Position numbers and translations under genes: made by a program
Part shown: piece after piece, positions 10,062 through 42,733 of the stretch
How positions within the stretch are numbered: the first letter of the stretch is position 1
Layout of the letters: each line of letters starts with the position of its first letter
Notes under the pieces: generated by a model
What the model was told of the DNA's origin: nothing
What the model saw: the letters and a program-made list of their open reading frames with translations, nothing else
Databases searched by the model: none
DNA from: an uncultured Candidatus Saccharibacteria bacterium
Lineage (GTDB): Bacteria > Patescibacteriota > Minisyncoccia > UBA6257 > UBA9933
Length of the DNA stretch: 64,000 bases
NCBI GenBank assembly: GCA_964642155.1
Contig: CAZXNT010000004.1
Coordinates: 2,040 to 66,039, forward strand
Direction: 5' to 3'

Positions 10062-10070
10062 TTATATAGT

Positions 10071-11182: not shown

Positions 11183-11896
11183 ATGAGAACAAAACTGCTT
11201 ACTAAAACATATAAAAGGAAAGTAGCTGTATTTGATATAGACGGAACATTTTTTCGTTCAAGCCTTTTGATTGAACTTGTAGAAGTATTCGTGCAAAAAG
11301 GTATTTTTCCCAGTAAAACAAGTAAAATTTATGAACCAGCATATAAAAAATGGCGTGATAGAAAAGAATCTTACGAAAACTATATTACTTCTGTAATTAA
11401 AGCATTTGATAAAAATATAGATGGTGTTGATTGCGATAAATTCGTAGAAATTGCCGATAAAGTTGCAAGCGTTAATCAAAATCACATTTATCGTTACACG
11501 CGAGATCTCATAAAAGAGTTAAAAGATAAGGATTATTTTATTTTAGCCATATCAAATTCGCCTTGGGGAGTTTTAGAAAAGTTTTGTAAGAAAAATGGCT
11601 TTGATAAAGTTTATGGAAGATTTTATAAAGTTGATGACAACGGAAAATTAACTAATACTGTTGAGCACGAAAAACTAATTTCGGATAAATCTAAAATCTT
11701 GATGCGCGCTATAGAAAAAGAAAACCTGACATTAAAAGGATCTATCGGAGTTGGAGATACTGAATCAGACATTCCGTTTTTAAAAATAGTTGAGAAGCCA
11801 ATTTGTTTTAATCCGAACAAAAAACTCTACGATTACGCTAAAAGCAAGAAATGGAAAATAGTTGTTGAAAGAAAAGATATGATTTATCATATTTAA
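11183..11896 (+). CDS. HAD-superfamily hydrolase, subfamily IB (phosphoserine phosphatase-like)
   Basis: 237 aa; VAVFDIDGTFF motif I and GVGDTESDIPFL motif IV. Confidence 0.65.
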   Translation: MRTKLLTKTYKRKVAVFDIDGTFFRSSLLIELVEVFVQKGIFPSKTSKIYEPAYKKWRDRKESYENYITSVIKAFDKNIDGVDCDKFVEIADKVASVNQNHIYRYTRDLIKELKDKDYFILAISNSPWGVLEKFCKKNGFDKVYGRFYKVDDNGKLTNTVEHEKLISDKSKILMRAIEKENLTLKGSIGVGDTESDIPFLKIVEKPICFNPNKKLYDYAKSKKWKIVVERKDMIYHI

Positions 11897-11922
11897 TACA
11901 GTAAATTAAAAAAGATAAAAAT

Positions 11923-17167: not shown

Positions 17168-18668
17168 CTTTTTACATTTTTACCAGCCGGCGGAACAACA
17201 ACAGGATGTTTTAGAAGCAATTGTCGCCCAAAGTTATCGTCCTCTAATTGAAGGAATAAAAAAACATAAAAGAGTTAGTCTTACCTTAAACATAAACGGC
17301 ACTCTTTTTGAGCTTTTAGATAAATATGGTTATAAGGATATTATTGACGGCTTGCGCGAAGCGAGCAGGGAAGGAAGAATTGAATTTACGTCTTCGGTAA
17401 AATATCACGCCCTTTTGCCTTTTTTAAAAGAAGACGAAATCGTCAGACAGATAAAAATGAATGACGAGACCAATAAGTTTTTCTTGGGAGATTTCTATAA
17501 ACCTCAAGGTTTTTTTCCGCCGGAGATGGCTTATAGCGAAACCTGCCTGCCGGCAGGCAAGAACATGCCGGCCTTGATTTCTTCGCTCGGTTTCAAGTGG
17601 ATTATTCTTGATGAAATAGCTTACGATGGTTTTGTCGGACATATTGATTATAAAAAAATTCATAAAATTGCCGGAAGCGATCTTTTGGTTTTTTTCCGCG
17701 AACGTCGTTTAAGCAATCTTATTATGAGCGCCGTTGTCCGATCGCGGGAAACACTACTTGAGGCGATGAAAGAAGATATTTTAAGCGGACGATATTTGGT
17801 AACGGCTATGGATGCGGAAACTTTCGGTCATCATCGGCCTGGTTTGGAAAAAATGCTTTTTGATATTTTTGACGCGCCGGAATTTGAGCTTATCAAAATT
17901 TCTGATATTTCTGACCACTACCGAGAAACAAAAGAAATTTCGCCGGTAAAATCAACTTGGGCTTCGAGCCGAAATGACATTGAAGAAAATACCCAGTTTC
18001 TTTCCTGGTCCGACCCGGAAAATATAATTCACCAATGGCAGTGGAAATTTACCGAGCTTGTTATTAAAGAAATTAACGCCATAAATAAAAACCATCCCCA
18101 TTACAGCTTAGTTAGAAAGAAAACCGACATAGCGCTCTCGAGCGATCACTTTTGGTGGGCTTCGGCTAAACCCTGGTGGAGTTTAGAAATGATTGAGGGC
18201 GGAGCCTATCGTTTGCTTGATACGATAAAACACATCCCCGATGTTTCAAAAGAGATTATTGAAGAAGCTCGCGATTATTATGAAAAGATAATAACCACTG
18301 CTTTCAATTGGCAGCGGACCGGAAAAATCAGGCAAATGATGAAAGAACAAAAATCTATTTTGCGGATTCCTTTTAAAGATAGAACTGTCGGCCGAGGTGG
18401 CGCCGAAGAAGGCGTTTATTGGGCTTTTATTAATATGATGAAGCGGTTGGAAAAAGAAGCGGCAAACAAGGGGGAATATGAAAAAGCGATTTTATGGCGA
18501 GACGCCATTTACAAACTTGAAAACAAACTCGATGTTTACGATACTATAAACGCCATCGACCTTTTACGAGTGGAAATTCCTCATAAAGAAGTTGAAGAAA
18601 CGATCGAAAAATATAAAGACAAGTACCGGCAAATTCGCGGTGGCCAACCGGAACAGCGGGGAACTTAA
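17124..18668 (+). CDS. Glycoside hydrolase family 57 protein (alpha-glucan branching/amylase-like)
   Basis: 514 aa; N-terminal LHFYQPAEQ and catalytic-region MDAETFGHH resemble GH57; immediately follows glgA. Confidence 0.55.
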   Translation: MNYLKKLWNIMYWANFLHFYQPAEQQQDVLEAIVAQSYRPLIEGIKKHKRVSLTLNINGTLFELLDKYGYKDIIDGLREASREGRIEFTSSVKYHALLPFLKEDEIVRQIKMNDETNKFFLGDFYKPQGFFPPEMAYSETCLPAGKNMPALISSLGFKWIILDEIAYDGFVGHIDYKKIHKIAGSDLLVFFRERRLSNLIMSAVVRSRETLLEAMKEDILSGRYLVTAMDAETFGHHRPGLEKMLFDIFDAPEFELIKISDISDHYRETKEISPVKSTWASSRNDIEENTQFLSWSDPENIIHQWQWKFTELVIKEINAINKNHPHYSLVRKKTDIALSSDHFWWASAKPWWSLEMIEGGAYRLLDTIKHIPDVSKEIIEEARDYYEKIITTAFNWQRTGKIRQMMKEQKSILRIPFKDRTVGRGGAEEGVYWAFINMMKRLEKEAANKGEYEKAILWRDAIYKLENKLDVYDTINAIDLLRVEIPHKEVEETIEKYKDKYRQIRGGQPEQRGT

Positions 18669-25296: not shown

Positions 25297-27942
25297 ATGA
25301 CTAACTGGCATACAAAAACTCCAACCGAAATATTTGAAATTTTAAGAACCAACGAACGAGGTTTAAATAAAGAAGAAGTTGGTTCACGGCTGAAAGAATA
25401 CGGATTAAATAAACTGCCGGAAGCGAAAATTGACAATCCGGCGATTATTTTCCTGCGTCAATTTCAAAGTCCGCTGATTTACATTCTTTTTGCCGCCAGT
25501 TTGGCAATTTTTTATTTGAAAGATTTTATTGATGGTTTGATTATTTTAGCAGTGCTTCTTTTCAACGCTATTGTCGGCGCTTTACAGGAAGGAAAGGCGC
25601 AAAATACGCTTTTGGCGCTTAAAAATTTTATTAAAACCGATGCTGAAGTTTTAAGGGACGGCAAGGAAATTATTGTTCCGGACAGTGAATTGGTTCCCGG
25701 AGACATTATTCTCTTGCAGGAAGGGGAAAAAATACCGGCTGACGCCAGAGTTCTGGTTTCTAATAATCTTAAAATAGACCAGGCGTCTTTAACAGGAGAA
25801 TCAATTCCAGTTTATAAAACGCCGGAAGAACTTCATCGTGGAGATTTGGTCGTCATTGACCAAAAAAACATAGTTTTTAAAGGCACTTATATCGCGGCCG
25901 GGAACGGACAAGCGGTTGTTGTTGCCACTGGTTTAGATACCACCATTGGGAAAATCAGTCAGAAAATCGCGCTTATTGATACGGAAATACCGCTTAAAAA
26001 AGATATCCGCCAGCTTTCGCGGTTGATAATTATAGTGGTTGCCATTATTGGAATTATTTTGTTTTTCAGCGGAATTTTTTCCGGAAAATCTTTAATTGAA
26101 ATGTTTAAAGTTGTTGTCGCGATTTCGGTTTCTATTATTCCCGAAGGCTTGCCGATTGTCATTACGCTTGTTTTAGCCACCGGCGTTTGGCGTATGGCAA
26201 AACAAAACGCCTTAGTTAAAAAACTTCAGGCAGTTGAGGCCTTGGGTCAGGTAAAAATAATCGCGGTTGATAAAACAGGAACTATTACAAAAAACGAATT
26301 AGTTGTCCAAAAAGTTTTTACAAATGGCAAAATATTTGAAGTCAGGGGAGTCGGTTACGAACCAAAAGGTGAAATTTATTTTGAAAATCAATTGATTTCT
26401 CCGCCGGATTTTGAAGATTTAATTTTCTCCGGGAAAATCGCTTCTTTTTGCGCCAACGCGCGAGTTTTTTATTCCGAAGAAAATAAAAATTACAAAGTAA
26501 TTGGTGATCCGACCGAAGCCGCTCTTTTGGTTTTTAGCCAAAAAATAGGTTTCCAGAAAGAAATTATTGACGCGCAACATTCATTAATTAAAGAAATTCC
26601 TTTTGATTACAAAAATAAATATCACGCGGCAATCAGAAAAGTTGATGATAATAATTTTTTGACCGTTGTCGGAGCACCTGAATCGGTTATTCCGTTTTGC
26701 GGGCTTTCTAAAAAAGAAAATGAAGAATTGGAGTCTGTCTTGAATAAGATGCTGGAACAAGGATTACGGGTTTTGGCGTTCGCTTATAATCGCAGAGTTT
26801 CCGAAGATGTTGATTCCGAAAAAATGCCCAAACTTTCTTTTGGCGGTTTTTTTGGGATAAAAGACGGTTTGCGGCCGGAAGCCAAAGAGGCGATAAAAAG
26901 AGTCAAAGATGCCGGAATTAGAGTGATAATGATAACCGGCGACAATAAAATAACGGCGAGGGCTCTTGCCAAAGAAGCTGGAATTTATGCGGAAGGCGAT
27001 GGAATTTTAACGGACAAAGATTTAGACGCGCTTTCCGAAGAAGAATTGGCGAAAAAACTTCCGGAAATTTCCGTTTTTGCCCGCGTAACTCCGGAACACA
27101 AATTAAAAATTATTGAAGCCTATAAAAAAAGAAAAGAAATAATCGCGATGACCGGAGACGGCGTCAATGACGCGCCATCGCTCGTTGCCGCCGATTTAGG
27201 AATCGGGATGGGTAAAATCGGCACAGAAGTGGCGAAAGAAGTGGCGGACATCGTGCTTTTGGACGATAATTTTGAAACAATTGTTTCCGCGATTGAAGAG
27301 GGGAGAAGTATATATAAAACGATTAAAAAAGCCATTTTATATCTTTTTTCAACAAGTTTGGGCGAGGTTTTAACTATTAGCATCGCTCTTTTTTCCGGCT
27401 ATCCTTTGCCGCTTTTAGCCGGTCAAATTATTTGGTTGAATTTTGTCACCGATGGTTTTTTAACCGTAGCTTTGGCAATGGAACCGAAAGAAAAAGGATT
27501 GCTTAGAAAAAATTGGAAAAAGAAAGGGAAATATATGGTTGATATGCTGATGGCTCAAAGAATGTTTGTGATGGCGTTACCAATGAGCATCGGCGCGTTT
27601 TTTGTTTTTCAAAAATATCTTGATTTTGATTTAATAAAAGCAATGACTATGTCTTTAACCACTCTGGCGATTTTTCAATGGCTGAACGCTTGGAATTGCC
27701 GTTCGGAAGACAAATCAATTTTTAGAATGAATATTTTTTCCAATAAATGGCTGATGGGAGCCACATTTATCGTTGTTTCGCTCCAGCTTCTGGCGGTTTA
27801 CAATCCGATAATGCAAAAAATTTTACACACCGTTCCCTTGGATATTTCTGATTGGTTATTCGCGCTCGGCATTGCTTCTTCCATTATTGTAATAGAAGAA
27901 ATAAGAAAATTAATTTACAATAAACTAAGTTTTAATGTTTAA
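25297..27942 (+). CDS. P-type cation-transporting ATPase (type IIA, Ca2+/Mg2+-like)
   Basis: 881 aa; DKTGTIT phosphorylation motif, TGDGVNDAP hinge, 10 predicted TM helices. Confidence 0.85.
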   Translation: MTNWHTKTPTEIFEILRTNERGLNKEEVGSRLKEYGLNKLPEAKIDNPAIIFLRQFQSPLIYILFAASLAIFYLKDFIDGLIILAVLLFNAIVGALQEGKAQNTLLALKNFIKTDAEVLRDGKEIIVPDSELVPGDIILLQEGEKIPADARVLVSNNLKIDQASLTGESIPVYKTPEELHRGDLVVIDQKNIVFKGTYIAAGNGQAVVVATGLDTTIGKISQKIALIDTEIPLKKDIRQLSRLIIIVVAIIGIILFFSGIFSGKSLIEMFKVVVAISVSIIPEGLPIVITLVLATGVWRMAKQNALVKKLQAVEALGQVKIIAVDKTGTITKNELVVQKVFTNGKIFEVRGVGYEPKGEIYFENQLISPPDFEDLIFSGKIASFCANARVFYSEENKNYKVIGDPTEAALLVFSQKIGFQKEIIDAQHSLIKEIPFDYKNKYHAAIRKVDDNNFLTVVGAPESVIPFCGLSKKENEELESVLNKMLEQGLRVLAFAYNRRVSEDVDSEKMPKLSFGGFFGIKDGLRPEAKEAIKRVKDAGIRVIMITGDNKITARALAKEAGIYAEGDGILTDKDLDALSEEELAKKLPEISVFARVTPEHKLKIIEAYKKRKEIIAMTGDGVNDAPSLVAADLGIGMGKIGTEVAKEVADIVLLDDNFETIVSAIEEGRSIYKTIKKAILYLFSTSLGEVLTISIALFSGYPLPLLAGQIIWLNFVTDGFLTVALAMEPKEKGLLRKNWKKKGKYMVDMLMAQRMFVMALPMSIGAFFVFQKYLDFDLIKAMTMSLTTLAIFQWLNAWNCRSEDKSIFRMNIFSNKWLMGATFIVVSLQLLAVYNPIMQKILHTVPLDISDWLFALGIASSIIVIEEIRKLIYNKLSFNV

Positions 27943-28019
27943 ACAAAAATATTGACAGAATTATTAATTTGTGTATTATTAAAATAGTTTTTAAAAAATA
28001 ATAAAAGGGGGGCAAAATT

Positions 28020-28331
28020 ATGTTTGGAGAATCAGCATTAGATAGAATATATCGGGTTAATAACATTGTTTTTCGGGTTTTAGATATTGAGCCATATCCT
28101 AGAAATAAGGTCAGTAAGCAATATTTAGAAATCTTTAATTTTCCAGCGGGTGTGCTTATAGCAGTTCTTTACCGTGGGATACTTATTCCCAATATTACGT
28201 TTACAGGTGGCGTAGTGCGGCTTATGAAAGTCAAAATTATTAATGGCGATGTTTATAATAATCCCAAAGCCATTAGTGAGGTCTTGGGCGTGGAAAAGGC
28301 GATGTGTTCATACGACCTTATAAGATACTAA
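28020..28331 (+). CDS. Hypothetical protein
   Basis: 103 aa ORF; no family recognised. Confidence 0.3.
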   Translation: MFGESALDRIYRVNNIVFRVLDIEPYPRNKVSKQYLEIFNFPAGVLIAVLYRGILIPNITFTGGVVRLMKVKIINGDVYNNPKAISEVLGVEKAMCSYDLIRY

Positions 28332-28423
28332 ATTAACAAAGTAATATGGTTGTACTAGGGGCGCTTGTATTCACAGGAGCCTCTTTTATTTTTTTTAAGC
28401 GTAAAAAATGATAAGATTAAATT

Positions 28424-29386
28424 ATGAAAAATTCATTTGAACAACCAACTTTAAAAAATTCAGAAGAACAAGACGTTTGTGAACACGGAAACCCGAAGGG
28501 TTTGTGTGAGGTTTGTGATGAGAAAAATAAAGTAGAAATCAAAAATGAAAAAATAGACTACAGTAATCAACTTCATTTAAAAAAAATATTAGAAAATCCA
28601 CAAGAGCCGATTGATTTTAAAAATTGCGGAGTCCATGAATTTAGAAAAATAATTTTTGGTACAAATTCTCGTTTTAGAGAAAGAGATGGGCGGGCGTTGC
28701 TTAATAGTTTTGGGACCAAAAAAGGGATTACGGAAAACATGATTGCTTTGCTGAATTTTGCCGGAATCGAAAGAGAGTATCTTGATTATAATAATACACT
28801 TCATTTAAAGGAAATATTGGGAAAATCCAAGGAAAATATTAATTTAAATATATGCGGAGTTAAAGAATTTAGAAAAATGGTTTTTGGTACCGGTTCCCGT
28901 TTCAAAGAAATAAATGGATATGTATTGCTTGATAATTTCGGAACCAAAAAACAAGATACGGAAAACATGATTGATTTGCTTAATTTTGCCGGAATAGAAC
29001 ATGAAAATGAAAAAACGGGGGATAAAAAAGAAGAAGTTTTAAAACAATCTCTTGAAAATTTTGTTCAAGAAATATCAAATGCGGAAACTCAAGATAAAAT
29101 GGCAAAAAAAATCCGGGAAATTATGGAACTTCTACCGGAAAATGCCTGTGATATATTGCTTAAATATCATCCGGAATACAAAGGACTTAATATTGGTTAT
29201 GTAAAAAGCGTAATCGCGGATTATTTGGGCGATTTTCTTTTAATCAGGAAACTATGGGAGATTAAGGATGTTGAAATAACAAAAGAACTTTTTTCCGAAG
29301 AACAATTTGCGGAAGCATTATTTTTGAAATTTAAGGATGCTAGCTTCAATTTTTTCCAAAGAGAAAAAAAACTAATCCGGAAATAA
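28424..29386 (+). CDS. Hypothetical protein with two tandem about 95-aa internal repeats; first gene of the SNF2 operon
   Basis: 320 aa; NTLHLKEILG..ICGVKEFRKMVFGTGSRFKE..GYVLLDNFGTKKQDTENMIDLLNFAGIE repeats residues 45-140. Confidence 0.4.
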   Translation: MKNSFEQPTLKNSEEQDVCEHGNPKGLCEVCDEKNKVEIKNEKIDYSNQLHLKKILENPQEPIDFKNCGVHEFRKIIFGTNSRFRERDGRALLNSFGTKKGITENMIALLNFAGIEREYLDYNNTLHLKEILGKSKENINLNICGVKEFRKMVFGTGSRFKEINGYVLLDNFGTKKQDTENMIDLLNFAGIEHENEKTGDKKEEVLKQSLENFVQEISNAETQDKMAKKIREIMELLPENACDILLKYHPEYKGLNIGYVKSVIADYLGDFLLIRKLWEIKDVEITKELFSEEQFAEALFLKFKDASFNFFQREKKLIRK

Positions 29387-29397
29387 AAGAGCATGAT

Positions 29398-30348
29398 TTG
29401 ATAATGAAATATTTTGAGAACGCAGAACTTTTACAAGCGATAATTAAAATTCCCGAACTGCAGAAAACAATAGAAAAACTTAAAGAATATTATGAAGATA
29501 TTTTTAAATGGGCGAATAAGAAACCGGATAATATTGTGGATATTTTAGGAGAAGGGCGAACTTTTCCGGATATTAATCAATTGGTTAATATTAAAGAAAT
29601 TGTTGATAATGGCAAAATGCTTATTGCCGATGAAATGGGATTAGGTAAAAGCGCTTCAGCTATTCTATTTAAAGAATATTTAAAATTAAAGTGCGCTGTT
29701 ATTGTAGTGCCGAGCAATGTTGAAGATGTGTGGAAAAATTATTTGTCGGATAAAATAGGCGACAAAGGGGAACAAAAAGGCTATTTTAAAACAGGTTTAG
29801 CTCCAAAAGTTTTAATAATTGAGAATAAAAAGGATTTAGAAAAATTAAAAACAGAGGTTTTTGATTATATTTTGATTTCTCAGGAAAAAATATCAAGTGA
29901 GCATTATTTAGAAGCGTTGGAAGGCATTGATTTTGACATGTTAATCATAGATGAGGTGCATAAATTGAAAAACATAGAAGAGGGCATCCGTTCAGAAAAT
30001 ACCATAAAATTAGCTAAAAAAATTCAGGGTAAAGATAAATATTTAGCTATGCTTTCTGGCACTCCGATGCCCAATAAGGTAAAGGATTTAGCTATTATTC
30101 TTAAATTGCTTTATCCGGGGAAATATAAAAATATAAACGATAAAGAATTAATTAATCGTATAATTTACGGCGATATGGCTGGTTTGCGGCAGGAACTTTT
30201 TTCACGCATGCAGATGAAGGAAGTTGCTTCCAGTATTGAAATTCCTCCATTTTTACCCGAAGACGTGCGAGTTGAATTATCCAATAAAGAGAAAGAAGTT
30301 TATCAAATTCTTTTAGAAGAAGACGAATTGACTGCTTCGGAAAAATAA
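29398..30348 (+). CDS. SNF2-family helicase, N-terminal ATPase lobe (interrupted by a frameshift at a poly-A tract)
   Basis: 316 aa; motif I LIADEMGLGKSASAIL, motif II LIIDEVHKLKN, motif III LSGTPMPNKVKDL; stop created at the A5 run 30340-30345. Confidence 0.65.
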   Translation: MIMKYFENAELLQAIIKIPELQKTIEKLKEYYEDIFKWANKKPDNIVDILGEGRTFPDINQLVNIKEIVDNGKMLIADEMGLGKSASAILFKEYLKLKCAVIVVPSNVEDVWKNYLSDKIGDKGEQKGYFKTGLAPKVLIIENKKDLEKLKTEVFDYILISQEKISSEHYLEALEGIDFDMLIIDEVHKLKNIEEGIRSENTIKLAKKIQGKDKYLAMLSGTPMPNKVKDLAIILKLLYPGKYKNINDKELINRIIYGDMAGLRQELFSRMQMKEVASSIEIPPFLPEDVRVELSNKEKEVYQILLEEDELTASEK

Positions 30349-30383
30349 TTATTCTTCGACAATTTTTACTTAATCCTCAGCTT

Positions 30384-32120
30384 TTGGGAGTAGAGCCTGG
30401 ATTTGAGGGTTCTAAAGTTAAAAAATTAAGAGAAATTTTAGCTGAAGATTTAAAAATTAAAAATAGAATTATTATTTGGGTGAATAGCTATATCGATGGC
30501 GTAATTCGTCCAGAGATGGAAGAAAGCGGAAAAGTTATAACAGAAGACATTATTAGTAAATTAAAATTGCCCAAAGATATAGTATGGACAATTCACGGCG
30601 AAGACAAAAATAGAAAAAAATATCGTGAAGAATTACAAAAGCGATTTAATAGCGGCGGCGCCGGGAAAATGGTTCTTTTTGTCAGCGGCAATACGGTTGA
30701 TGTCGGCGTGGATTTTTCTGGAGCGGAAGAAATAATTCACTATAATGAACCGTGGAGTAAATATGATAAAAAGCAACAAGATAAGCGCGCTCATAGAGTA
30801 GGATTAAAGAGGCCATTAATTGCGAAAACGCTTATTACTCGCGGAACAATTGAAGAAGGAATTAGAAGATATATTGATGCCAAAGAGAAGGCGATTGAAA
30901 AACTTTTACGTGGCTTGGAAAGGACGGAGGCGGAAAATAAAATGCTCAAAAAAGACGCCAATAGTTGGAAAAAAGATATTGAAGCGGATATAAATCTTGC
31001 GGAAGATTATAATAATGAATCGAAAAAATTAATGCTTCATTTTGGAGCGGGATGGGAAGCGGGTGAAGAATATTTTAAAAATATGCCGGAAGAAGAAAAA
31101 GAAAGTTATGCCAGTTTATATAGAAAAAACAGACGGCTTTCCTATCAAGGGAATAATGCACGTGTCAGTATTTCTTTATTGGAGAAAATGATTGCCGAAC
31201 AAAGAAAAAATAATGTGCGATTAAGAATTTTAGATATTGCTTCTGGTCCGGAGATGTTGAAAAGATGCGCTAGAGAAGATTTGCGCAATCAAATTTATAG
31301 TATGGACATAAATGAAAAGCATTTTGAAGATGTTGTTGATACTAAAAGAATTTTTAGAAAAAGTTATTTAAATTTACCGGTAAGAAGCGGTTCGGCGGAT
31401 TATTATAATATTGGATTTGCCTTTCATCAAACTAAACCGTTTAGGTTTTATAAAAAAAATTATGAAAAACTTCAAGTTTTATCAGAAATGAATCGGGTTT
31501 TGAAAGTTGGCGGTCGAGCGATAATTAGTGAAATTCATAATGTAGAATTTATAAATCTTAAAAAATTTGAAGAATTAATAGTAAGATTGGGCATGAAGGT
31601 AGTTAAAGAATATAGCGGTGAAGTAAATGGGGGCGAAAATTACAGAGCGCATTTTTTAATTTTGGAAAAAGTGAGAGAAATAGAAGAATATGGAAGTGAT
31701 ACATTTAGATTAAGCGATGAAGAAAAGAAAAATAGAATTAAAAAATTGAGCGATAAACTTGGGAAAGAATTGCTCTCGGGTTTGGAAATAGGAAAGCTTC
31801 CTAAGGGAGTAAGCCATCTTAACGATCAACGACGCATGATTAATAATTTTGAATTAAATGGCAAAAATATTCAAGTAGTTTTTATAGAAGAAGACAGGAA
31901 ATTATTTGTAGAAGAAAAGAAATCTATTCAAGACGGCGAAGCGCTTAAGAAAAAATTTGGCGGAAGAATTGATGATATACCATTATTTGAAATACATAAG
32001 ATTGGTTTTAAAAGAAAATTAAAGAATCCTAATTTAATGTATAGAATTATTGAAAATGGCGGAGTAATTGTGATTAGGGGTGATAAGAAAAAAAGGAATT
32101 ATTCTAAAAGAAATGAATGA
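30384..32120 (+). CDS. SNF2-family helicase C-terminal lobe fused to a class I SAM-dependent methyltransferase-like domain (frame -1 continuation of 29398..30348)
   Basis: Open frame continues upstream to 30339 (..KIIILRQFLLNPQLL..); helicase-C motif VI KRAHRVGLKRP; MTase motif I ILDIASGPEMLKR and post-I VLKVGGRAIISE. Confidence 0.6.
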   Translation: MGVEPGFEGSKVKKLREILAEDLKIKNRIIIWVNSYIDGVIRPEMEESGKVITEDIISKLKLPKDIVWTIHGEDKNRKKYREELQKRFNSGGAGKMVLFVSGNTVDVGVDFSGAEEIIHYNEPWSKYDKKQQDKRAHRVGLKRPLIAKTLITRGTIEEGIRRYIDAKEKAIEKLLRGLERTEAENKMLKKDANSWKKDIEADINLAEDYNNESKKLMLHFGAGWEAGEEYFKNMPEEEKESYASLYRKNRRLSYQGNNARVSISLLEKMIAEQRKNNVRLRILDIASGPEMLKRCAREDLRNQIYSMDINEKHFEDVVDTKRIFRKSYLNLPVRSGSADYYNIGFAFHQTKPFRFYKKNYEKLQVLSEMNRVLKVGGRAIISEIHNVEFINLKKFEELIVRLGMKVVKEYSGEVNGGENYRAHFLILEKVREIEEYGSDTFRLSDEEKKNRIKKLSDKLGKELLSGLEIGKLPKGVSHLNDQRRMINNFELNGKNIQVVFIEEDRKLFVEEKKSIQDGEALKKKFGGRIDDIPLFEIHKIGFKRKLKNPNLMYRIIENGGVIVIRGDKKKRNYSKRNE

Positions 32121-32833
32121 AATCAAGCGATGTTAAAAAAGCTTTACGAAAAGTGGCGGATAAAAAGAAAGCGATAATTCTCGCGAGGTTTTTTAAAACC
32201 GGAAAAGACGATTACGGCGAGGGCGATGTTTTTATCGGCGTTGTTGTTCCGCGACAAAGGAAAATCGCCGCAAAATTCGCCGAGCTTCCGCTTAAAGAAA
32301 TTAAAAAACTTTTAAAAAGCAAAATTCACGAGGAGCGTCTCACGGGATTGATTATTCTGGTTAACCAATACAAAGCAAGCTTAAAAGCTGACAAGCTGAA
32401 AAGTTTACAAGACGAAATTTTCCGTTTTTATGTAAAAAATATTTCTAGCGTCAATAATTGGGATTTGGTTGATTTATCCTGCCGCGATATTATCGGCGAA
32501 CATTTAATTTTATGGTCGCGAAAAATTCTTTATCAATTCGCAAAATCGCGGAATATGTGGAAACGCAGAATCGCGATTGTTTCCACTTGGGCGTTTATTC
32601 GTAGAAATGATTTTAAAGATACTTTGTGGCTTGCAGAAATTTTTTTTAATGATAAGCACGATTTAATCCATAAAGCGGCTGGTTGGATGCTTCGCGAGGT
32701 TGGCAAAAAAAATGAATGCATTTTACGGCAGTTTCTTGATAAAAACGCCTCAAAAATGCCGCGCGTGATGTTGCGTTACAGTATTGAACGCTTGCCGGAA
32801 GATATTCGGGGAAAATACTTGCGTATGATATAA
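32117..32833 (+). CDS. DNA alkylation repair enzyme family (AlkD/AlkC-like HEAT-repeat glycosylase)
   Basis: 238 aa; FFKTGKDDYGEGDVFIGVVVPRQRKIA and WDLVD motifs of the DNA_alkylation family; 4-nt overlap with upstream SNF2-MTase ORF. Confidence 0.7.
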   Translation: MKSSDVKKALRKVADKKKAIILARFFKTGKDDYGEGDVFIGVVVPRQRKIAAKFAELPLKEIKKLLKSKIHEERLTGLIILVNQYKASLKADKLKSLQDEIFRFYVKNISSVNNWDLVDLSCRDIIGEHLILWSRKILYQFAKSRNMWKRRIAIVSTWAFIRRNDFKDTLWLAEIFFNDKHDLIHKAAGWMLREVGKKNECILRQFLDKNASKMPRVMLRYSIERLPEDIRGKYLRMI

Positions 32834-32840
32834 TATCCAG

Positions 32841-33137
32841 ATGGTTAAAAACATAAGCGCGGAAGAATTGTGCGAATCTATTAAAACTAAAAAAGACGGT
32901 ATTGAGATGATAGATGTTCGTCAGCCGGAAGAATACGCGGAATCGCATATTGAAAGAGCAAAATTGATTCCCTTGGGCGAATTATCGGAACGAATAAATG
33001 AAATAAATTGGAATAGGGAAGTTGTTTTTATGTGCCGAAGCGGAGTCAGAAGCGCTATGGCAGCCAATATCGCGGCCTCATTGGGCAAAGATGTTAGTAA
33101 TCTTGAAGGCGGAATTTTAGCTTGGCAAAAATTATGA
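32841..33137 (+). CDS. Rhodanese-like single-domain sulfurtransferase
   Basis: 98 aa; active-site loop CRSGVRS. Confidence 0.75.
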   Translation: MVKNISAEELCESIKTKKDGIEMIDVRQPEEYAESHIERAKLIPLGELSERINEINWNREVVFMCRSGVRSAMAANIAASLGKDVSNLEGGILAWQKL

Positions 33138-33155
33138 TAATATAGTATAATTATT

Positions 33156-33752
33156 ATGAATATGTTTGGAATCCAATTTAATCTTAAAAAATTCGGTATC
33201 GGACTGGCGATTATTATTGTCTTTAATTTATTTGTTAATTACGGCATTAATACTTTTTATAAATTGCCGAAGTACGAGGATTTTTGTAATCCTGAAAGGT
33301 TAAAGCAATCTTTAAACACAAGAGAAAGCTGTGAAGTTGTCGGCGGATTATGGACGGAGAACGTCGGTTATGAAACAAAGCGCCTTTACGCGCCGGCTTC
33401 TGAATTAACGCCTGCGGAAAAACCGATTCCAGTGGTGGAAATTCAAAATCAACAGCTGTCCGGCTGGTGCGACCAAGATTTCTCTTGTAGAAAAGATTTT
33501 GAGAAAATTGATAATATTTATCGGAGGAATGTTTTTGTGGTGTGGGTTGTTGTCGGCATAGCGGCAATTGTCGCGAGTTTCTTCATAGGCGCCGTTCAAA
33601 TGCTTTCCACGAGTTTTATGTTTTCCGGACTTTTGGCTTTAATTATTGGCACGATTCAATATTGGTCCGCAATGCAGGATTATCTAAGATTTATAATTTT
33701 GGGCATTGCGCTTGGTATTTTGATTTATTTGGCGTATAAAAAGTTAAAGTAA
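33156..33752 (+). CDS. Hypothetical membrane protein
   Basis: 198 aa; N- and C-terminal TM helices. Confidence 0.35.
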   Translation: MNMFGIQFNLKKFGIGLAIIIVFNLFVNYGINTFYKLPKYEDFCNPERLKQSLNTRESCEVVGGLWTENVGYETKRLYAPASELTPAEKPIPVVEIQNQQLSGWCDQDFSCRKDFEKIDNIYRRNVFVVWVVVGIAAIVASFFIGAVQMLSTSFMFSGLLALIIGTIQYWSAMQDYLRFIILGIALGILIYLAYKKLK

Positions 33753-33769
33753 AGGTCGGTGAAGTAATC

Positions 33770-33853
33770 GCTAATAATGCGAATCAATTTTAAATAATGC
33801 TAATAAACTATTCGCATTATTTGCTAAAAATTAGCATTATTCGCGAACACTAT
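33770..33853. promoter_or_regulatory. Cluster of AATAATGCGAAT / ATTCGCATTATT inverted motifs upstream of gene 33855
   Basis: taatcgctaataatgcgaat ... attcgcattatt ... attagcattattcgcgaa; near-identical 19-mer taatcgcgaataatgcgaat upstream of rplU at 46121. Confidence 0.4.
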
Positions 33854-33854
33854 T

Positions 33855-34106
33855 ATGAAGGAAGAAAAACCAATCGGCAAAATCACTCATTATTATGACC
33901 ATATCGGCGTGGCGATTATCAAATTCAATAAAGCGGTTAAAAAAGGGGAAATGATTACTATTAGGGGCGCTCACACGGATTTTACCCAAAAGATTGATTC
34001 AATACAGTATGACCATAAAGATATAAATGAAGCGAAAAAGGGGCAGGAAGTAGGAATCAAGGTGAAAGAAAAAGTTCATGATACTGATAAAATTTACGCC
34101 GCTTAA
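33855..34106 (+). CDS. Hypothetical small beta-barrel protein
   Basis: 83 aa ORF; no confident family. Confidence 0.3.
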   Translation: MKEEKPIGKITHYYDHIGVAIIKFNKAVKKGEMITIRGAHTDFTQKIDSIQYDHKDINEAKKGQEVGIKVKEKVHDTDKIYAA

Positions 34107-34119
34107 TATAATTTAAAAT

Positions 34120-34917
34120 ATGGAAAAAATTAAAAATTATTTAAATATCGCGATTATTATCGTTTTGTTTATTTTTGCTTTCTCGGCGATGTCGTATGTG
34201 GGCAGTTATTCAAAATCAATTCAACCGTCGTCTTTCAGAAGTTTTTCAGCCAACGGCGAGGGAAAAATTACGGCGATTCCGGATATTGCCCAGTTTACTT
34301 TTAGCGTGATAACGGAGGGTGACAAGGGTATTGCCGGATTGCAAAAAGAAAATATCAATAAGATAAATAAGATAATCAGTTTTATAAAATCAAATGGGGT
34401 TGAAGATAAAGATATTAAAACTCTAAATTACAATTTAGAGCCGCGATATCAACGATATGGTTGTGGTCTTTATGAACAATACCAAGCGGAAAAAAGTGGA
34501 GAACTAAATCCGTGTCCGCCGGCCGAAATTGTCGGCTATACGATTACTCAAACGGTTTCCGTAAAAATAAGGAATTTTGAAAAGATAGGGGATATTATGG
34601 CGGGAGTCGTTCAAAATGGCGCCAATTCTGTTTCGCAATTGTCTTTTGCGATAGACGACCCGTCTTCCATTCAAGATAAAGCGCGGGAGGAAGCGATTGG
34701 AAAAGCCAAGGCGCGGGCGAAATTGATTGCCAAAGCGGGCGGATTTGATGTCGGGAAATTGCTTTCAATTGATGAAAATAATTATCCTGTTCCGGTTTAT
34801 GGATATGGTATTGGCGGCGGAATGGAAAAATCAGTGGCATTGTCGGCATCGCCGCAAATAGAACCCGGTTCTCAAGAAATCACGGTAAATGTGATTTTGC
34901 GGTATGAGATAGAATAA
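34120..34917 (+). CDS. SIMPL-domain (DUF541) secreted/periplasmic protein
   Basis: 265 aa; signal/anchor then SANGEGKITAIPDIAQFTFSV SIMPL pattern. Confidence 0.5.
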   Translation: MEKIKNYLNIAIIIVLFIFAFSAMSYVGSYSKSIQPSSFRSFSANGEGKITAIPDIAQFTFSVITEGDKGIAGLQKENINKINKIISFIKSNGVEDKDIKTLNYNLEPRYQRYGCGLYEQYQAEKSGELNPCPPAEIVGYTITQTVSVKIRNFEKIGDIMAGVVQNGANSVSQLSFAIDDPSSIQDKAREEAIGKAKARAKLIAKAGGFDVGKLLSIDENNYPVPVYGYGIGGGMEKSVALSASPQIEPGSQEITVNVILRYEIE

Positions 34918-38566: not shown

Positions 38567-40324
38567 CTATCGCTCGGGGGCATATTTTTTACATTTTTTA
38601 TATTCATTGTATTTATCATGAGCATCTGGTCTGCTACCATAGTCAATATTCCATTTTATCGATGGGTCAGATACAAAAGTAGCTGAATCAATTCCTTCAA
38701 TTATAAAAATTGCTGATTTTTGCCATTCATATTCTTTACCATAACAATATAGATGGTCCTTGTCAGCCGTATAAAGATCATTAATAACCCTGAATGTTTT
38801 CGGGTCAGCATCAATTTTCGTTAATGTACAACCTTCATAACAAAGAACGGCATATACACCGCGATTATCCTTAGCATATCTATCTGATAGTGCCTCAAAA
38901 TACCTTGTATCTGACCCACTAAGGGTGTCACCGAAACCACTGAAATACACTCTTCTATTATCTCTAGCAAAACTATCATTAATCACCGTGAAGGAATCGT
39001 GGTCAGCTCCGTCTAACATTTCCGCACGACTGCCGCTATATGGATCATAGTCAAAACGATAAATATTTTTTTCATCTTCAGCATAAATACTACCGAGTAT
39101 TTTGAACGTATTTCTTGTTGAAACACCCAAGGGGCAAAATCTTTCATCAGAAAGACTGCCATACTCAATACCATTTACTGAGTTTTTTATTGCCCAGTAT
39201 TCATTCAATTTAGTTACGCCGTCACTAGGGCGAGTAGGAACACAATCTCGGTTGAAGCTGGTGGTCGTAGCTAATTTAATACTCCTTATCACTTTATCAA
39301 GTTCATCTGCAAGTTTTCTCCCGTATTTCAAAGACATTGTTTCGAAACGAAATATAATAATTTTATCTTGTATCTTTACGTAGAATGAAAAAGTGCCGAA
39401 CATCTCGGATGGTTGATGGGTTAGCGTATAAGATAAACCACTATCAGTTCTTGATTCTTTACATTTTAGTTCAAAATAAAAATCAATAATCTGAACAGCA
39501 TTGTCACAATTCAAATCATCCGCTTTTATGTTTTTTATGCTTGAATCAAGATTGGAAAAGTGCTTCAAAAAGTCTGAGGAAGTGGAAGCTGAAAATATAT
39601 AAACTCTGCCTGCTCCACCAAATTCAGGCAGGTCTGAAGGTATAAGGTAGAGAATAGCTCCCGAATTCGAGGGTTCAAATTTATTTTCTCTTAATCCCCA
39701 ATCTGCCGGGTATACAAAAGAAAATCCTAATATTGTATTTTTATACAACTTGGGGGTGGCGTTTGCAGTCGCCACTGCTTGCGGTCCGTTCGATCTTGTT
39801 GGAGTTTGAAATCGCTCAACTTCGCCTTTCAGTTCGGCAATTTGTTTCGTCGCTTCCTCTTGGCCTTTCTTGCTTGCTTCAATTGCTTGCGTGATTGCCT
39901 CTTTTGCCTCATCGGGGACCTTAATTAAAATGGTGGCTAACACATCTTGATTTCTTGAGTTGTTGTCTGCAATCGAGTTGAGCAAAGTTTCCGCCTGTCC
40001 TTTGTCTTTAACTTCTTTTGATTTTTCTGTCGCTAACGCAATATTGCTTTCATAATTGGCGATAGCCGTTTTAACCCCGTCCGGATTCTTTTCTTCCGCA
40101 ATGGCTTCTATTTCAGCTAAACGCTCATCAGCATAACCTAACGCTTTCTTGGCTTTGCTTTCAGAATCAAAAGTGAAGAAAAGACCTATATTTTCAAAAG
40201 CGGTGTCAAAGAAATAGAAAAAACTTCCTGGCTTAACGCCCGCATTTGTAGCCGCGGACACTTGCACTGGTACAACAAAAGCAAGTGAGATAAGGAGTAC
40301 CGACAGTGTGGTTAGTTTTTTCAT
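38567..40324 (-). CDS. Secreted protein with N-terminal DUF5667-like helical domain and C-terminal DKNYY-type repeats
   Basis: 585 aa; signal peptide; KPGSFFYFFDTAFENI block; repeated YAKDNRGVY / YTADKDHLY / ARDNRRVYF motifs. Confidence 0.5.
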   Translation of the reverse strand: MKKLTTLSVLLISLAFVVPVQVSAATNAGVKPGSFFYFFDTAFENIGLFFTFDSESKAKKALGYADERLAEIEAIAEEKNPDGVKTAIANYESNIALATEKSKEVKDKGQAETLLNSIADNNSRNQDVLATILIKVPDEAKEAITQAIEASKKGQEEATKQIAELKGEVERFQTPTRSNGPQAVATANATPKLYKNTILGFSFVYPADWGLRENKFEPSNSGAILYLIPSDLPEFGGAGRVYIFSASTSSDFLKHFSNLDSSIKNIKADDLNCDNAVQIIDFYFELKCKESRTDSGLSYTLTHQPSEMFGTFSFYVKIQDKIIIFRFETMSLKYGRKLADELDKVIRSIKLATTTSFNRDCVPTRPSDGVTKLNEYWAIKNSVNGIEYGSLSDERFCPLGVSTRNTFKILGSIYAEDEKNIYRFDYDPYSGSRAEMLDGADHDSFTVINDSFARDNRRVYFSGFGDTLSGSDTRYFEALSDRYAKDNRGVYAVLCYEGCTLTKIDADPKTFRVINDLYTADKDHLYCYGKEYEWQKSAIFIIEGIDSATFVSDPSIKWNIDYGSRPDAHDKYNEYKKCKKYAPER

Positions 40325-40881: not shown

Positions 40882-40972
40882 AAGTAACTTGTTCGGAAAT
40901 GACTGCTCCGCGCGGCGAGTACGCCGCGCTCCGCAGGGCAAAATCCGCTTTTGTTTTCGCCGTGAAATCCCA
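40875..40972. repeat. IR2-L: left copy of a 98-bp inverted repeat (overlaps the end of IR1-R by about 7 bp)
   Basis: gcaccataagtaacttgttcggaaatgactgctccgcgcggcgagtacgcc...gtgaaatccca; reverse complement at 42426..42523 with one mismatch. Confidence 0.85.
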
Positions 40973-40988
40973 TAATTCGCCCCAGCGT

Positions 40989-42662
40989 ATGGAAACAACT
41001 CAAACCAAAACTAAATGCGTTCTCTACGCTCGCAAGAGCACCGAGGAGGACGACAAGCAAGTGATGAGCATAGACGCTCAACTTTTTGAGCTGAAAGAAT
41101 ATGCTCGTAGAGAACGCATTGAAATCGTAAAAGTATTTACGGAAGCGAAAAGCGCAAAGAAGCCCGGGCGAGACCAATTCGCCAAAATGATTGCGTATAT
41201 TGAAAGTTCTAGTGAACCGCTTGGTATTTTGGCATGGCACCCAGACCGTCTCGCCCGTAATTCTGTTGATGGCGGAAAAATTATCTATCTCATAGACATC
41301 AACAGAATTGCTTCTTTGCGCTTTCCGCAGTTTTGGTTTGAGCCAACTCCGCAAGGGAAATTCATGTTGCAAGTGGCGTTCGGACAAAGCAAGTATTTCT
41401 CGGATAACTTAGTGGAAAATGTGAAGCGCGGTATCCGCCAAAAACTCCGCCGTGGCGAATGGCTGACGCTCGCTCCTTTGGGATATGTGAATAATTACAA
41501 AACGCGGAACATTGACCCTCACCCTACATATTCCAAAGTTATCAAGCGAGCGTTTGAGGAATACGCCACCGGAAAATATACCCTTGTCGGTTTAGCGGAG
41601 TTTTTGGCGGAGCATAGCATTGTCCAAAAGAAAGGAACGTCACTTGCCAAAGTTTCCGTCGTGAAAATGCTCACGAACAGGGCATATTTGGGATTTGTAA
41701 AATTTCATGGCGAATATCACGACGGAAACTTTGAGCCGATTCTTTCCCCGACACTGTTTGAAGCAGTGCAGAAGGTTTTGAAATCCAAGCAACGACCGCG
41801 CAAACAAAAGGAGAGGTATGATTTTCCATTTACGCAGTTTGCGCGGTGCGGCGAGTGCGGCAATATGATCACGGCGCAATATGCCACTAACCGCTTCGGC
41901 ACTCGCTATACTTACTATCGTTGCACCAAGAAAAGCGGAAAGTGTAGCCAGCCGTATATTGCCGCTGACGCGCTCGCCGCTCAAGCGCAAAGACTGCTTC
42001 AATCAGTGTCGCTCCCTCTCGAAGAAATTGCGATTATGGAAAAGCAGATAAACGTATGGAAAAACGAGTCAATTTCTTTGAGAGGAGAAGTTGCCCAAAA
42101 TCTGAAATCCAAGCTTTCCGAGGCGCAGGAGAAGCTAGACCGGCTTGTGTCGCTCTATCTCGACCAAGATATCGAGCGCGACCTGTATCTCACTCGCAAA
42201 GACGCTCTCCTGCGCCAAAAAGCGAAGTTGGAGGAAAGTTTGGGAGATTTTGGGCAACAAGGAAAGAATCGGCTCGAACCCTTGTGGAGTTTCGTTTTGT
42301 CCTTGAAAGAAGCGGAAAAAGTAGCGCAAACAAAAAATTACGCCGAATGGCGCAACTTTTTCCGTTCTCTCGGCTCTAACCCCGAAATCAAGGACAAAAC
42401 GCTTTCAATCAATTGGGGCGAACTCTGGGATTTCACGGCGAAAACAAAAGCGGATTTTGCCCTGCGGAGCGCGGCGCACTCGCCGCGCGGAGCAGTCATT
42501 TCCGAACAAGTTACTTATGGTGCCCGGGGTGGGATTCGAACCCACAAACCTTTTGGGTCAAGGATTTTAAGTCCTCTGCGTAAACCGTTCCGCCACCCGG
42601 GCATATTTAAATTTCGAGGCCTGAGGCGGAATCGAACCGCCGTTATACCCAGCACCTCTTGA
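40989..42662 (+). CDS. Large serine recombinase (resolvase/invertase catalytic domain + recombinase domain + zinc ribbon)
   Basis: Start METTQTKTKCVLYARKSTEEDD (catalytic Ser), LAWHPDRLARN, zinc ribbon CGECGN...YYRCTKKSGKC; about 47% GC; ORF has no stop before 42662 and reads through IR2-R and two tRNA genes, so the true C-terminus is uncertain. Confidence 0.8.
   Translation: METTQTKTKCVLYARKSTEEDDKQVMSIDAQLFELKEYARRERIEIVKVFTEAKSAKKPGRDQFAKMIAYIESSSEPLGILAWHPDRLARNSVDGGKIIYLIDINRIASLRFPQFWFEPTPQGKFMLQVAFGQSKYFSDNLVENVKRGIRQKLRRGEWLTLAPLGYVNNYKTRNIDPHPTYSKVIKRAFEEYATGKYTLVGLAEFLAEHSIVQKKGTSLAKVSVVKMLTNRAYLGFVKFHGEYHDGNFEPILSPTLFEAVQKVLKSKQRPRKQKERYDFPFTQFARCGECGNMITAQYATNRFGTRYTYYRCTKKSGKCSQPYIAADALAAQAQRLLQSVSLPLEEIAIMEKQINVWKNESISLRGEVAQNLKSKLSEAQEKLDRLVSLYLDQDIERDLYLTRKDALLRQKAKLEESLGDFGQQGKNRLEPLWSFVLSLKEAEKVAQTKNYAEWRNFFRSLGSNPEIKDKTLSINWGELWDFTAKTKADFALRSAAHSPRGAVISEQVTYGARGGIRTHKPFGSRILSPLRKPFRHPGIFKFRGLRRNRTAVIPSTS
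42426..42523. repeat. IR2-R: right copy of the 98-bp inverted repeat, ending exactly at the 3' end of tRNA-Leu(TAA)
   Basis: tgggatttcacggcg...aagttacttatggtgc; the terminal tggtgc is the reverse complement of the tRNA discriminator+CCA. Confidence 0.85.
42521..42602 (-). tRNA. tRNA-Leu (TAA)
   Basis: Manual fold on minus strand: acceptor GCCCGGG/CCCGGGC, anticodon loop CTTAAAA, long variable arm, T-arm GTGGG-TTCGAAT-CCCAC, encoded CCA. Confidence 0.8.
42603..42661 (-). other. Truncated tRNA-like fragment (acceptor + T-arm only) between tRNA-Cys and tRNA-Leu
   Basis: minus strand cgaggcc-tcaagaggtgctgggtataac-ggcgg-ttcgatt-ccgcc-tca-ggcctcg; lacks D and anticodon arms. Confidence 0.4.
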
Positions 42663-42733
42663 GGCCTCGGGGAGAATCGAACTCCCGTATAAGAGTTTTG
42701 CAGACTCTCGCCTTACCACTTGGCTACGAGGCC
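42662..42733 (-). tRNA. tRNA-Cys (GCA)
   Basis: Manual fold: acceptor GGCCTCG/CGAGGCC, 3-bp D-stem, anticodon stem AGAGT/ACTCT loop CTGCAAA, T-arm GGGAG-TTCGATT-CTCCC. Confidence 0.8.

Follow-up and report, generated by a model that had tools for sequence, protein, structure and literature searches.

The stretch of DNA considered here (the window) covers 64 kb from an uncultured Candidatus Saccharibacteria bacterium, and the whole stretch around the locus of interest is a long series of co-directional genes. Three successive ORFs and a downstream AlkD-like gene had been read in the initial annotation as an operon encoding a tandem-repeat protein, a frameshifted SNF2 helicase-methyltransferase fusion and a glycosylase. 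This arrangement raises the question of how many genes are present and why the coding sequence is interrupted. From comparison with homologues, window positions 28424-32120 are one SNF2 helicase-methyltransferase (SNF2-MTase) gene of a Patescibacteria-restricted family, split into three ORFs with the following layout.

28424..29371, + strand: segment 1 of the broken gene, frame 2, ORF 28424-29386, with head, repeats and linker
29364..29371, + strand: frameshift site 1, an A8 run one base short compared with intact homologues, with the in-frame heptamer A_AAA_AAA
29372..30345, + strand: segment 2 of the broken gene, frame 1, ORF 29398-30348, with the SNF2 N-terminal lobe
30341..30345, + strand: frameshift site 2, where an A5 run leads into TAA at 30346-30348 and relatives have A6
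30342..32120, + strand: segment 3 of the broken gene, frame 0, ORF 30384-32120, with Helicase_C, class I methyltransferase (MTase) and C-terminal domain

When intact homologues were compared with the window by tblastn, three collinear HSPs were obtained in frames 2, 1 and 3, joining at about positions 29371 and 30342, and homologues of 960-1590 aa covered all three ORFs in order. The head and linker of segment 1 align with proteins P0003, P0004 and P0005, and segment 2 forms a collinear HSP to P0001 and P0003. Once both breaks are mended, the product is a 1232-aa protein, collinear with intact proteins of 1050-1940 aa in about 60 Patescibacteria genomes; a single ORF of that size is found at about 60 of the 69 genome loci of the family. 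Because a second frameshift lies in the A8 run, the tandem-repeat protein (28424-29386) is not a gene of its own but the N-terminus of the SNF2-MTase gene. Together with the three collinear HSPs, this second frameshift sets the restored product at 1232 aa and reduces the proposed three-gene operon to one broken gene plus AlkD. The earlier prediction that restoring a single A would give a protein of about 895 aa was right as to the helicase-MTase fusion but not as to its length, which is 907 aa from TTG 29398 and 1232 aa for the full product.

The homopolymer frameshift first described in the SNF2 gene is borne out, with the A8 site now added to it. ORF 29398-30348 ends at the TAA immediately following the A5 run and, as had been noted, the -1 frame continues without interruption, reading GKIIILRQFLLNPQLL past the run and remaining open to 32120, into Helicase_C and the class I MTase. 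At this site, L003 and L004 read GAA AAA ATA, an A6 run in frame; judged from these relatives, an ancestral A6 run is now A5. At site 1, the sequence with one base added reads FQREKKTNPEIKEHDLIMKYF, matching FQKEKKSNPKANEYELVMRYF of the intact homologues, and L002 reads GAA AAA AAA TCT AAT CC, in frame; alignment places the deletion at or beside the A8 run. Each break is therefore a 1-nt deletion relative to the relatives, and neither is present in any of them.

Two single-base losses at A homopolymers are the classic signature of a sequencing or assembly error, which would leave an intact 1232-aa gene with each A run under-called by one base. The retention of 135 of 141 highly conserved residues in the repaired protein and the census of A/T homopolymers in the window, with no run longer than 8 (21 of exactly 8), are in line with an error, and a systematic under-call could be shared by every assembly from this type of library. 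However, independent Logan assemblies of two runs match the window exactly over 4.3 and 8.6 kb, which argues for accurate reads: window positions 25879-34507, spanning both sites, recur unchanged in contig L001 (SRR13723394), and positions 25363-29639, spanning site 1, in contig L074 (SRR13723397), so that site 1 is the same in both runs and site 2 in one. Moreover, site 2 is merely A5 instead of A6, while 229 runs of exactly 6 were called in the window, and the suspicious adjacent-ORF pairs tested there proved by Pfam to be distinct intact genes, an inositol-monophosphatase remnant excepted. Since L001 and L074 are identical to the window, both deletions are probably real in the DNA, and an error is unlikely. 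The inositol-monophosphatase remnant, which has an in-frame TGA, is an instance of gene decay elsewhere in the genome.

Modification and defence genes often carry homopolymer switches, and the same shift (one added A, or a -1 frame change) mends both sites. A reversible or leaky switch, by which phase variation in tract length or slippage, transcriptional or -1 ribosomal, yields some full-length protein, is thus suggested by the type of gene as well as by site 1, whose A_AAA_AAA fits the slippery-heptamer pattern X_XXY_YYZ and where some full-length read-through is conceivable. Site 2 does not follow this pattern (G_GAA_AAA, then TAA), its A5 run is short for transcriptional slippage, and two switches in one gene would both have to fire. 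A gapped pattern search of metagenome contigs found no tract-length variants around site 2, the Logan contigs run unbroken through both sites, and the 70 nt 3' of each site gave no RNA structure beyond shuffled controls (z +1.11 at site 1 and -0.22 at site 2). Phase variation and programmed slippage, both put forward initially, thus find little room, about 60 relatives being uninterrupted and relatives at site 2 having A6 in frame, and such a switch is improbable here. A programmed frameshift in the strict sense was rejected because the breaks are missing in relatives and no stimulatory structure follows them, and the deletions appear to constitute no conserved recoding device.

Alternatively, each of the three ORFs could be translated on its own, with reinitiation at ATG 29404 and TTG 30384, and the products could form an active complex. 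The two stops are followed by these start codons at distances of 18 and 36 nt, and the sequence is otherwise well preserved, nearly as conserved as in intact members. No relative is divided likewise, however, and the second break strips the conserved KIIxFRQFLLNP, located between the SNF2 lobes, from both products, which makes a functional split gene very unlikely.

Decay, one of two further explanations offered initially for the break, the other being the error discussed above, is the best reading. Of the 141 positions with at least 95% conservation, the repaired protein deviates at only 6 (family median 2, maximum 11); on that account the gene was most likely inactivated recently, its remaining sequence being still family-like. 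Taken as a whole, it is likely that the broken gene is a recently inactivated pseudogene produced by two independent 1-nt deletions, that AlkD is a chance neighbour and that intact members would dock on DNA, translocate or remodel, and modify a base or a DNA-bound protein.

The domain content of the repaired protein bears on this predicted role. The gene encodes, in order, a Cys/His head, an HTH-like repeat array, a linker, an SNF2 ATPase, an Rrp8/Bud23-like MTase and a family-specific C-terminal domain. In segment 1, the head (DVCEHGNPKGLCEVCD) is followed by two 76-aa HTH-like repeats at about 28556-29011, which appear at the DNA level as a tandem repeat (28570-28999, unit 228 bp, 1.9 copies), and by the conserved linker LPENACDILLKYHPEYKGL. 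This repeat, which has a weak HTH_62 match, is present in 6-8 copies in the N-terminal regions of family members L040, L054 and L058 / P0054 and P0057. A Pfam search of the fused translation identified SNF2-rel_dom (E 1e-17, 64.7 bits for a cut-off of 24.9), Helicase_C at about 30414-30803 (E 3e-8, 34.3 bits for a cut-off of 23.5) and Methyltransf_11. Both SNF2 ATPase profiles (PF00176 and PF00271) score above gathering and stand in the right order, the two lobes lying in different frames in the raw sequence. The motifs of ORF 29398-30348 (I, DEMGLGKSA; II, DEVHKLKN; III, SGTP in LSGTPMPNK) are nearly invariant in the family.

The Methyltransf_11 match is marginal (E 2.4e-4, 22.1 bits for a cut-off of 21.2, on the 907-aa product); relatives score higher for methyltransferase, e.g., P0005 with 31.6 bits. 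The MTase domain, at about 31209-31676, carries motif I as ILDIASGPE, and residues D93, A95, S96, G97, P98 and D117 are invariant across 59 sequences. Its AlphaFold model (pLDDT 90), a Rossmann-type methyltransferase fold with an acidic residue past strand 2, returned 448 methyltransferase-type PDB matches with E <= 1e-3, of which the best was 2zfu (nucleomethylin/Rrp8, E 3e-8), while searches of the region against the PDB by sequence gave insignificant matches only. With Pfam at threshold and this fold match, the methyltransferase called in the initial annotation stands, as a predicted class I SAM methyltransferase. The domain gave no N6_Mtase/MethyltransfD12-type Pfam match and has no (D/N/S)PP(Y/F) motif of N6A/N4C DNA amino-methyltransferases, the region reading DYYNIGFAFHQT, and the folds nearest to it belong to methyltransferases of RNA, proteins or small molecules.

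The gene following the broken gene is an ordinary member of its own family.

32117..32833, + strand: AlkD-like DNA alkylation repair gene, PF08713 E 1e-58, with a 4-nt overlap (ATGA) with the stop of the broken gene

ORF 32117-32833 matches PF08713 (DNA_alkylation) over profile positions 1-213 of 213 with 199 bits, which agrees with the AlkD-like call and the 4-nt overlap first reported, and its WDLVD motif and a later Trp, by eye, presumably correspond to the AlkD catalytic residues. It had been proposed that helicase, methyltransferase and glycosylase form one module serving DNA modification, repair or defence, and the overlap and shared orientation fit this proposal. AlkD is also near the gene in the two closest relatives; AlkD-type enzymes remove N3- and N7-alkylpurines, and the MTase resembles the ring-nitrogen base methylases Rrp8 and Bud23. 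However, AlkD accompanies the family gene at only 3 of 71 loci, namely the window, L002 and L003. Among the relatives, only the two closest have it within 8 kb, 3.7 kb away in one and beyond a Sua5/YrdC gene in the other, and one to four unrelated genes intervene; among about 64 more distant loci, tblastn and iterated profile searches found no AlkD homologue within 8 kb. Co-directional order throughout the stretch likewise speaks against a dedicated pairing. The comparison shows that the overlap with the 3' end reflects the local gene order of this lineage, outside of which AlkD and the SNF2-MTase family are unlinked; AlkD is here a neighbour and no conserved partner, and the proposed module is hardly credible. 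The annotation of the window is accordingly corrected from three ORFs to one probable pseudogene, and the helicase-methyltransferase-glycosylase proposal falls.

What recurs in the neighbourhood is a small gene located upstream instead of AlkD.

27952..27979, + strand: promoter-like site TTGACA-16-TATTAT, 11/12 consensus, upstream of the small partner gene
28020..28331, + strand: gene for a 103-aa protein with an AAG / formyltransferase-C-terminal (FMT-C) fold, conserved neighbour of the SNF2-MTase gene

Clustering of the flanking ORFs of 71 loci identified this gene as the only specific recurrent neighbour, directly adjoining the SNF2-MTase gene in roughly half of those loci whose flanking sequence is long enough. 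The protein of ORF 28020-28331 has an AAG-type fold; it resembles human AAG / bacterial MPG (PF02245) and the Fmt/ArnA C-terminal domain, but AAG is twice as large. The PF02245 profile matches neither the window protein nor its subfamily, one member of a sister subfamily reaching 27.2 bits for a cut-off of 27, and searches of the partner subfamily against the PDB by sequence returned insignificant matches only. In subfamily A2, only F18, L46, V65 and I85 are invariant. A conserved catalytic Glu is absent: at the position which we take, from alignment by eye, to correspond to that of AAG (ETEAY motif), some A2 members have K or Q, and the position is unconserved in A3. The small protein is thus probably a binding module and no glycosylase. 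The promoter-like site may be a candidate start of the transcription unit; it is a consensus match only, the count of such sites in the region being not above shuffled expectation.

The SNF2-MTase family appears, from the genomes searched, almost confined to Patescibacteria. No curated model matches it, and no description of it was found in the literature on SNF2-methyltransferase proteins of Patescibacteria/CPR and Saccharibacteria SNF2 proteins, in agreement with the original remark that no such system had been described. Its members include uncharacterised proteins annotated as SNF2-related or methyltransferase domain-containing, such as P0001 (1238 aa, GCA_041664225.1), P0003 and P0005. 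These Patescibacteria relatives are 60-69% identical to the window protein, collinear with it over linker, SNF2, methyltransferase and C-terminal domains, and share its Cys/His head and the small gene upstream. They differ in being single intact ORFs, whereas the window copy has two frameshifts, and in their N-terminal arrays, which either are built from another HTH repeat (EGWKT...NPEYF) or differ in copy number. Disrupted copies also occur among other family members (L012 and L042). The MTase with its C-terminal module is nearly always the C-terminal part of a protein of 1000-2600 aa. A mobile-element origin was considered and rejected, tblastn searches of 50,697 phage records and 72,556 plasmid records having yielded no match to this module.

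Based on domain identity and gene neighbourhood, a model can be proposed for intact members, in which the protein would dock on DNA through its HTH array, translocate or remodel by means of its SNF2 motor, and use the MTase to modify either a base of a nucleic acid or a protein bound to DNA. The small AAG/FMT-C-fold protein is a putative accessory subunit that would bind nucleic acid. A more specific and speculative version, which we regard as a long shot, is that the intact gene and the small gene form a two-gene nucleic-acid modification or conflict system of Patescibacteria, placing a ring-nitrogen methylpurine-type mark on DNA. The HTH-array-guided SNF2 translocase would bring the Rrp8/Bud23-like MTase to DNA to install an m1A- or m7G-like mark, the glycosylase-fold partner would read or guard this mark, and the window copy would be a case of recent loss. 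If true, an accessory, conflict-type role would lie behind the sporadic distribution of the family, its swappable arrays of N-terminal repeats, the repeated disruption of its genes and the serine recombinases nearby. The family is now defined by its combination of HTH array, SNF2 motor and Rrp8-like MTase, with a small conserved partner of glycosylase/formyltransferase-C fold, and identifying the substrate of an intact member could uncover a novel pathway of nucleic-acid or chromatin-like modification in reduced, episymbiotic bacteria.

Among known systems, DISARM DrmD, Dpd DpdE, Zorya ZorD and RapA/HepA have the SNF2 ATPase core in common with the window protein. Membership in these defence systems or in RapA was rejected on PADLOC and NCBIfam profiles, as the matches are generic SNF2 ones: all equivalog-level scores were 13-52 bits for cut-offs of 500-1500 (e.g., DrmD_b 51 vs 950, DpdE 45 vs 500 and RapA 28 vs 576), and no DrmA/B/C, Dpd or Zor companion genes recur in the flanking ORFs of the 71 loci. 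DISARM also couples an SNF2 protein with a methyltransferase, but the window MTase is not of the DNA amino-methyltransferase type. Its best structural matches, alongside weak Methyltransf_8/11 Pfam matches, are Rrp8/nucleomethylin (2zfu) and Bud23 (4qtt; Foldseek E 1e-6), two rRNA base methyltransferases with about 15% identity to the window domain, which are stand-alone enzymes without SNF2 motor, HTH array or C-terminal extension. Helicase-methyltransferase fusions do exist in phage P1 DarB and in Type ISP and Type III restriction enzymes, which likewise combine an SF2 motor and a SAM methyltransferase in one polypeptide. Their methyltransferase domains are, however, N6-adenine DNA methyltransferases, and the restriction enzymes are also nucleases, whereas the window MTase is predicted to be of another type; an SNF2 motor fused to such a non-DNA-type methyltransferase is an unusual combination.

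The region comprises the following features (window positions):

28020-28331 (+): small gene encoding a 103-aa protein of AAG / formyltransferase-C-terminal (FMT-C) fold
28424-29386: ORF containing a tandem repeat at 28570-28999 (228-bp unit, 1.9 copies, Tandem Repeats Finder)
29364-29371: A8 run, site 1
29398-30348: ORF carrying SNF2 motifs I-III and ending at TAA 30346-30348
30341-30345: A5 run, site 2, immediately 5' of this TAA; shifting back by one base gives GKIIILRQFLLNPQLL, in a frame open as far as 32120
32117-32833 (+): full-length PF08713 (AlkD-type) protein, overlapping the stop of the preceding frame by 4 nt

Insertion of one A at site 2 gives a 907-aa product starting at TTG 29398, with three Pfam domains:

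SNF2-rel_dom, E 1e-17
Helicase_C, E 3e-8
Methyltransf_11, E 2.4e-4 (22.1 bits vs a cut-off of 21.2)

The initial annotation was correct in all its sequence-level statements (A5-run stop, open second frame, domains, AlkD overlap and tandem repeat). The frameshifted gene it described is real, although the description was incomplete, a second frameshift at the A8 run having been overlooked.

The repaired protein has hundreds of database matches in Patescibacteria, 960-1590 aa long; the top one (1238 aa) shares 69% identity. Intact homologues begin with a head, MKNxFEQP...DVCxHxNPKGxCxxCD, identical in type to that of ORF 28424-29386, followed by repeat modules and a conserved linker, LPENACDILFKYHPEYKGL...FLKFKDAS..FQKEKK, which leads unbroken into ...NPxxxEYxLxMRYF... 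and then the SNF2 domain. Over the A8 run of the window, translation of the first ORF gives FQREKKLIRK* and that of the next frame gives KKTNPEIKEHDLIMKYFENAELL; a single added base restores FQREKKTNPEIKEHDLIMKYF. In tblastn, intact homologues align as three collinear HSPs (frames 2, 1 and 3) that meet at ~29371 and ~30342. Because homologues are collinear with all three ORFs, these are a single gene carrying two frameshifts, with a product of 1232 aa after repair of both sites; what had been taken for a separate tandem-repeat protein is the N-terminal part of the SNF2 gene, cut off by the A8-run frameshift.

At site 2, the close relative L003 and the family locus L004 read GAA AAA ATA (A6) in frame, where the window has A5; at site 1, the other closest relative, L002, reads GAA AAA AAA TCT AAT CC, where the window has GAAAAAAAA-CTAATCC. 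By this comparison, both breaks are single-base deletions at A runs. Logan contig L001 (SRR13723394, 8629 bp) reproduces window 25879-34507 exactly and spans both sites, while L074 (SRR13723397, 4277 bp) does so for 25363-29639 and spans site 1. This exact agreement over multiple kb, seen in two separately assembled runs, speaks for a real allele and accurate reads. Sequencing error is accordingly quite unlikely, even if the window contains no A/T homopolymer longer than 8 (21 runs of exactly 8, 94 of exactly 7), which may mean that longer runs are selected against or meet a technical ceiling, so that a true A9 at site 1 could have been under-called.

Across 69 loci, taken from genomes at one per species, about 60 contain one uninterrupted ORF of 1050-1940 aa. 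Three exceptions (L068, L069 and L073) are apparently interrupted, L068 and L073 belonging to lineages that read TGA as a sense codon; the two others are:

L012: in-frame TGA at 7461-7463, ~10 codons past the LLNPxLL motif, near the counterpart of the window's site 2
L042: frameshift at about 6540-6560, near the linker/SNF2 boundary, in a chromosome-level MAG

A gene functionally split into separate products is very improbable. Site 1 happens to fit an A_AAA_AAA heptamer, as a programmed or leaky shift would have it, but programmed frameshifting was rejected given the uninterrupted ORF of most loci, the lack of RNA structure beyond shuffled controls 3' of either site, and site 2 not being tandem-slippery; a leaky or phase-variable switch is unlikely. 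The frameshifts amount to ordinary decay of one gene that was hit twice, and the broken gene is probably a pseudogene. Since the repaired protein deviates at 6 of the 141 positions conserved at >=95% (family median 2, maximum 11), its inactivation seems recent. The window holds a second decayed gene, an inositol-monophosphatase-family remnant (about 8492-8977) whose N-terminal part is in frame yet broken by a TGA at 8588; its ORF 8639-8977 matches profile positions 53-158 of 271 only, the C-terminal half being absent. Other adjacent ORF pairs tested in the window are distinct intact genes.

The helicase-methyltransferase-glycosylase system initially envisaged is not supported. Only in the window, L002 and L003 is an AlkD homologue no more than 8 kb from the family gene, and none was found near it in any other locus, profile iteration included; in L002, 3.7 kb and four unrelated genes intervene, and in L003 a Sua5/YrdC gene. 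The overlap is therefore local synteny in a long co-directional gene run and not a module. The intervening L003 gene (Sua5/YciO/YrdC; L003 compared at 5205-5802) overlaps AlkD by 4 nt and is absent from the window, whose SNF2-MTase frame runs a few codons (NYSKRNE) longer, into the AlkD start at 32117; this suggests that the window lineage lost about 0.6 kb or that the L003 lineage gained an insertion.

Elsewhere in the window, a large serine recombinase (40899-42733, 587-aa ORF, Resolvase + Recombinase + Zn_ribbon_recom) overlaps by its 3' end an opposite-strand tRNA-Leu(taa), beside tRNA-Cys, and could point to an element integrated at a tRNA site. Between ABC-transporter genes and this recombinase lies a 585-aa protein with DUF5667 and DKNYY domains (38567-40324, -). 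At 15644-18668, a starch/glycogen synthase (Glyco_transf_5 + GT1) precedes a GH57 glycoside hydrolase, giving this reduced genome a glycogen-type pair, and two tRNA-Met(cat) genes stand in tandem at 4292-4451, 15 nt apart.

The methyltransferase call proved solid. The predicted structure of the last 387 residues (pLDDT 90, pTM 0.90) best matches nucleomethylin/Rrp8 (E 3e-8) and Bud23 (1e-6) in the PDB, together with other class I methyltransferases acting on RNA, protein or small molecules. Across 59 sequences, neither motif I (D-I-A-S-G-P) nor the acidic residue following strand 2 varies. A DNA amino-methyltransferase type was rejected, the best matches belonging to other class I enzymes. The N-terminal region of the family is a variable repeat array: in close relatives, an EGWKT...NPEYF repeat (weak HTH_29, HTH_23 or HTH_28 matches) occurs 1 to about 8 times, whereas the window has two copies (62% identical) of another 76-aa repeat, present in 6-8 copies in Moraniibacteriota members (weak HTH_62 match). 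When 1.84 billion cluster representatives were scanned exhaustively with HMMER, only 177 matches to the MTase and C-terminal module came up, nearly all at the very C-terminus of proteins of 1000-2600 aa. Record titles of family loci name Parcubacteria, Saccharimonadia, Microgenomates, Gracilibacteria, Peribacteria and others, some TPA bins being labelled otherwise. Phage and plasmid collections contained no homologue, and literature searches found no description of the family. In L017 (Taylorbacteria MAG), a second SNF2-type ORF (9687-13202, 1172 aa, SNF2-part matches only) lies directly 3' of the family gene.

Unbiased clustering of all flanking ORFs yielded a sole specific recurrent neighbour, the small gene 28020-28331. 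Its homologues occur in 27 loci. In 24 of them, about half of the loci with sufficient flank, the two genes are immediate neighbours, the small one lying upstream on the same strand at a distance of 39-155 nt, or downstream in convergent orientation at 8-79 nt. They form two homologous subfamilies (hhalign 98%, E 6e-14), one of which reaches the Pfam Pur_DNA_glyco threshold (27.2 bits). Just 5' of the window copy, a strong promoter-like hexamer pair (27952-27979) was found by consensus match only.

In intact members, anchoring on DNA would fall to the HTH array, and translocation along it or remodelling of a nucleoprotein complex to the SNF2 motor; the target of methylation by the Rrp8/Bud23-like domain would be a base or a DNA-bound protein, with the small AAG/FMT-C-fold protein as a putative partner. 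No such activity is expected from the window copy, as the gene is broken. An accessory, possibly conflict-related role may fit better than housekeeping, as weakly indicated by the return of only 69 loci from 185,579 species with search patterns covering nearly invariant motifs, by the interchangeability of N-terminal arrays, by large serine recombinases within a few kb in 8 loci, and by recurrent disruption (window, L012, L042). What stays of interest is an uncharacterised family with a conserved small partner; compared with DrmD, DpdE, ZorD and RapA, the window protein shows generic SNF2 similarity only, far under the PADLOC and NCBIfam cut-offs.
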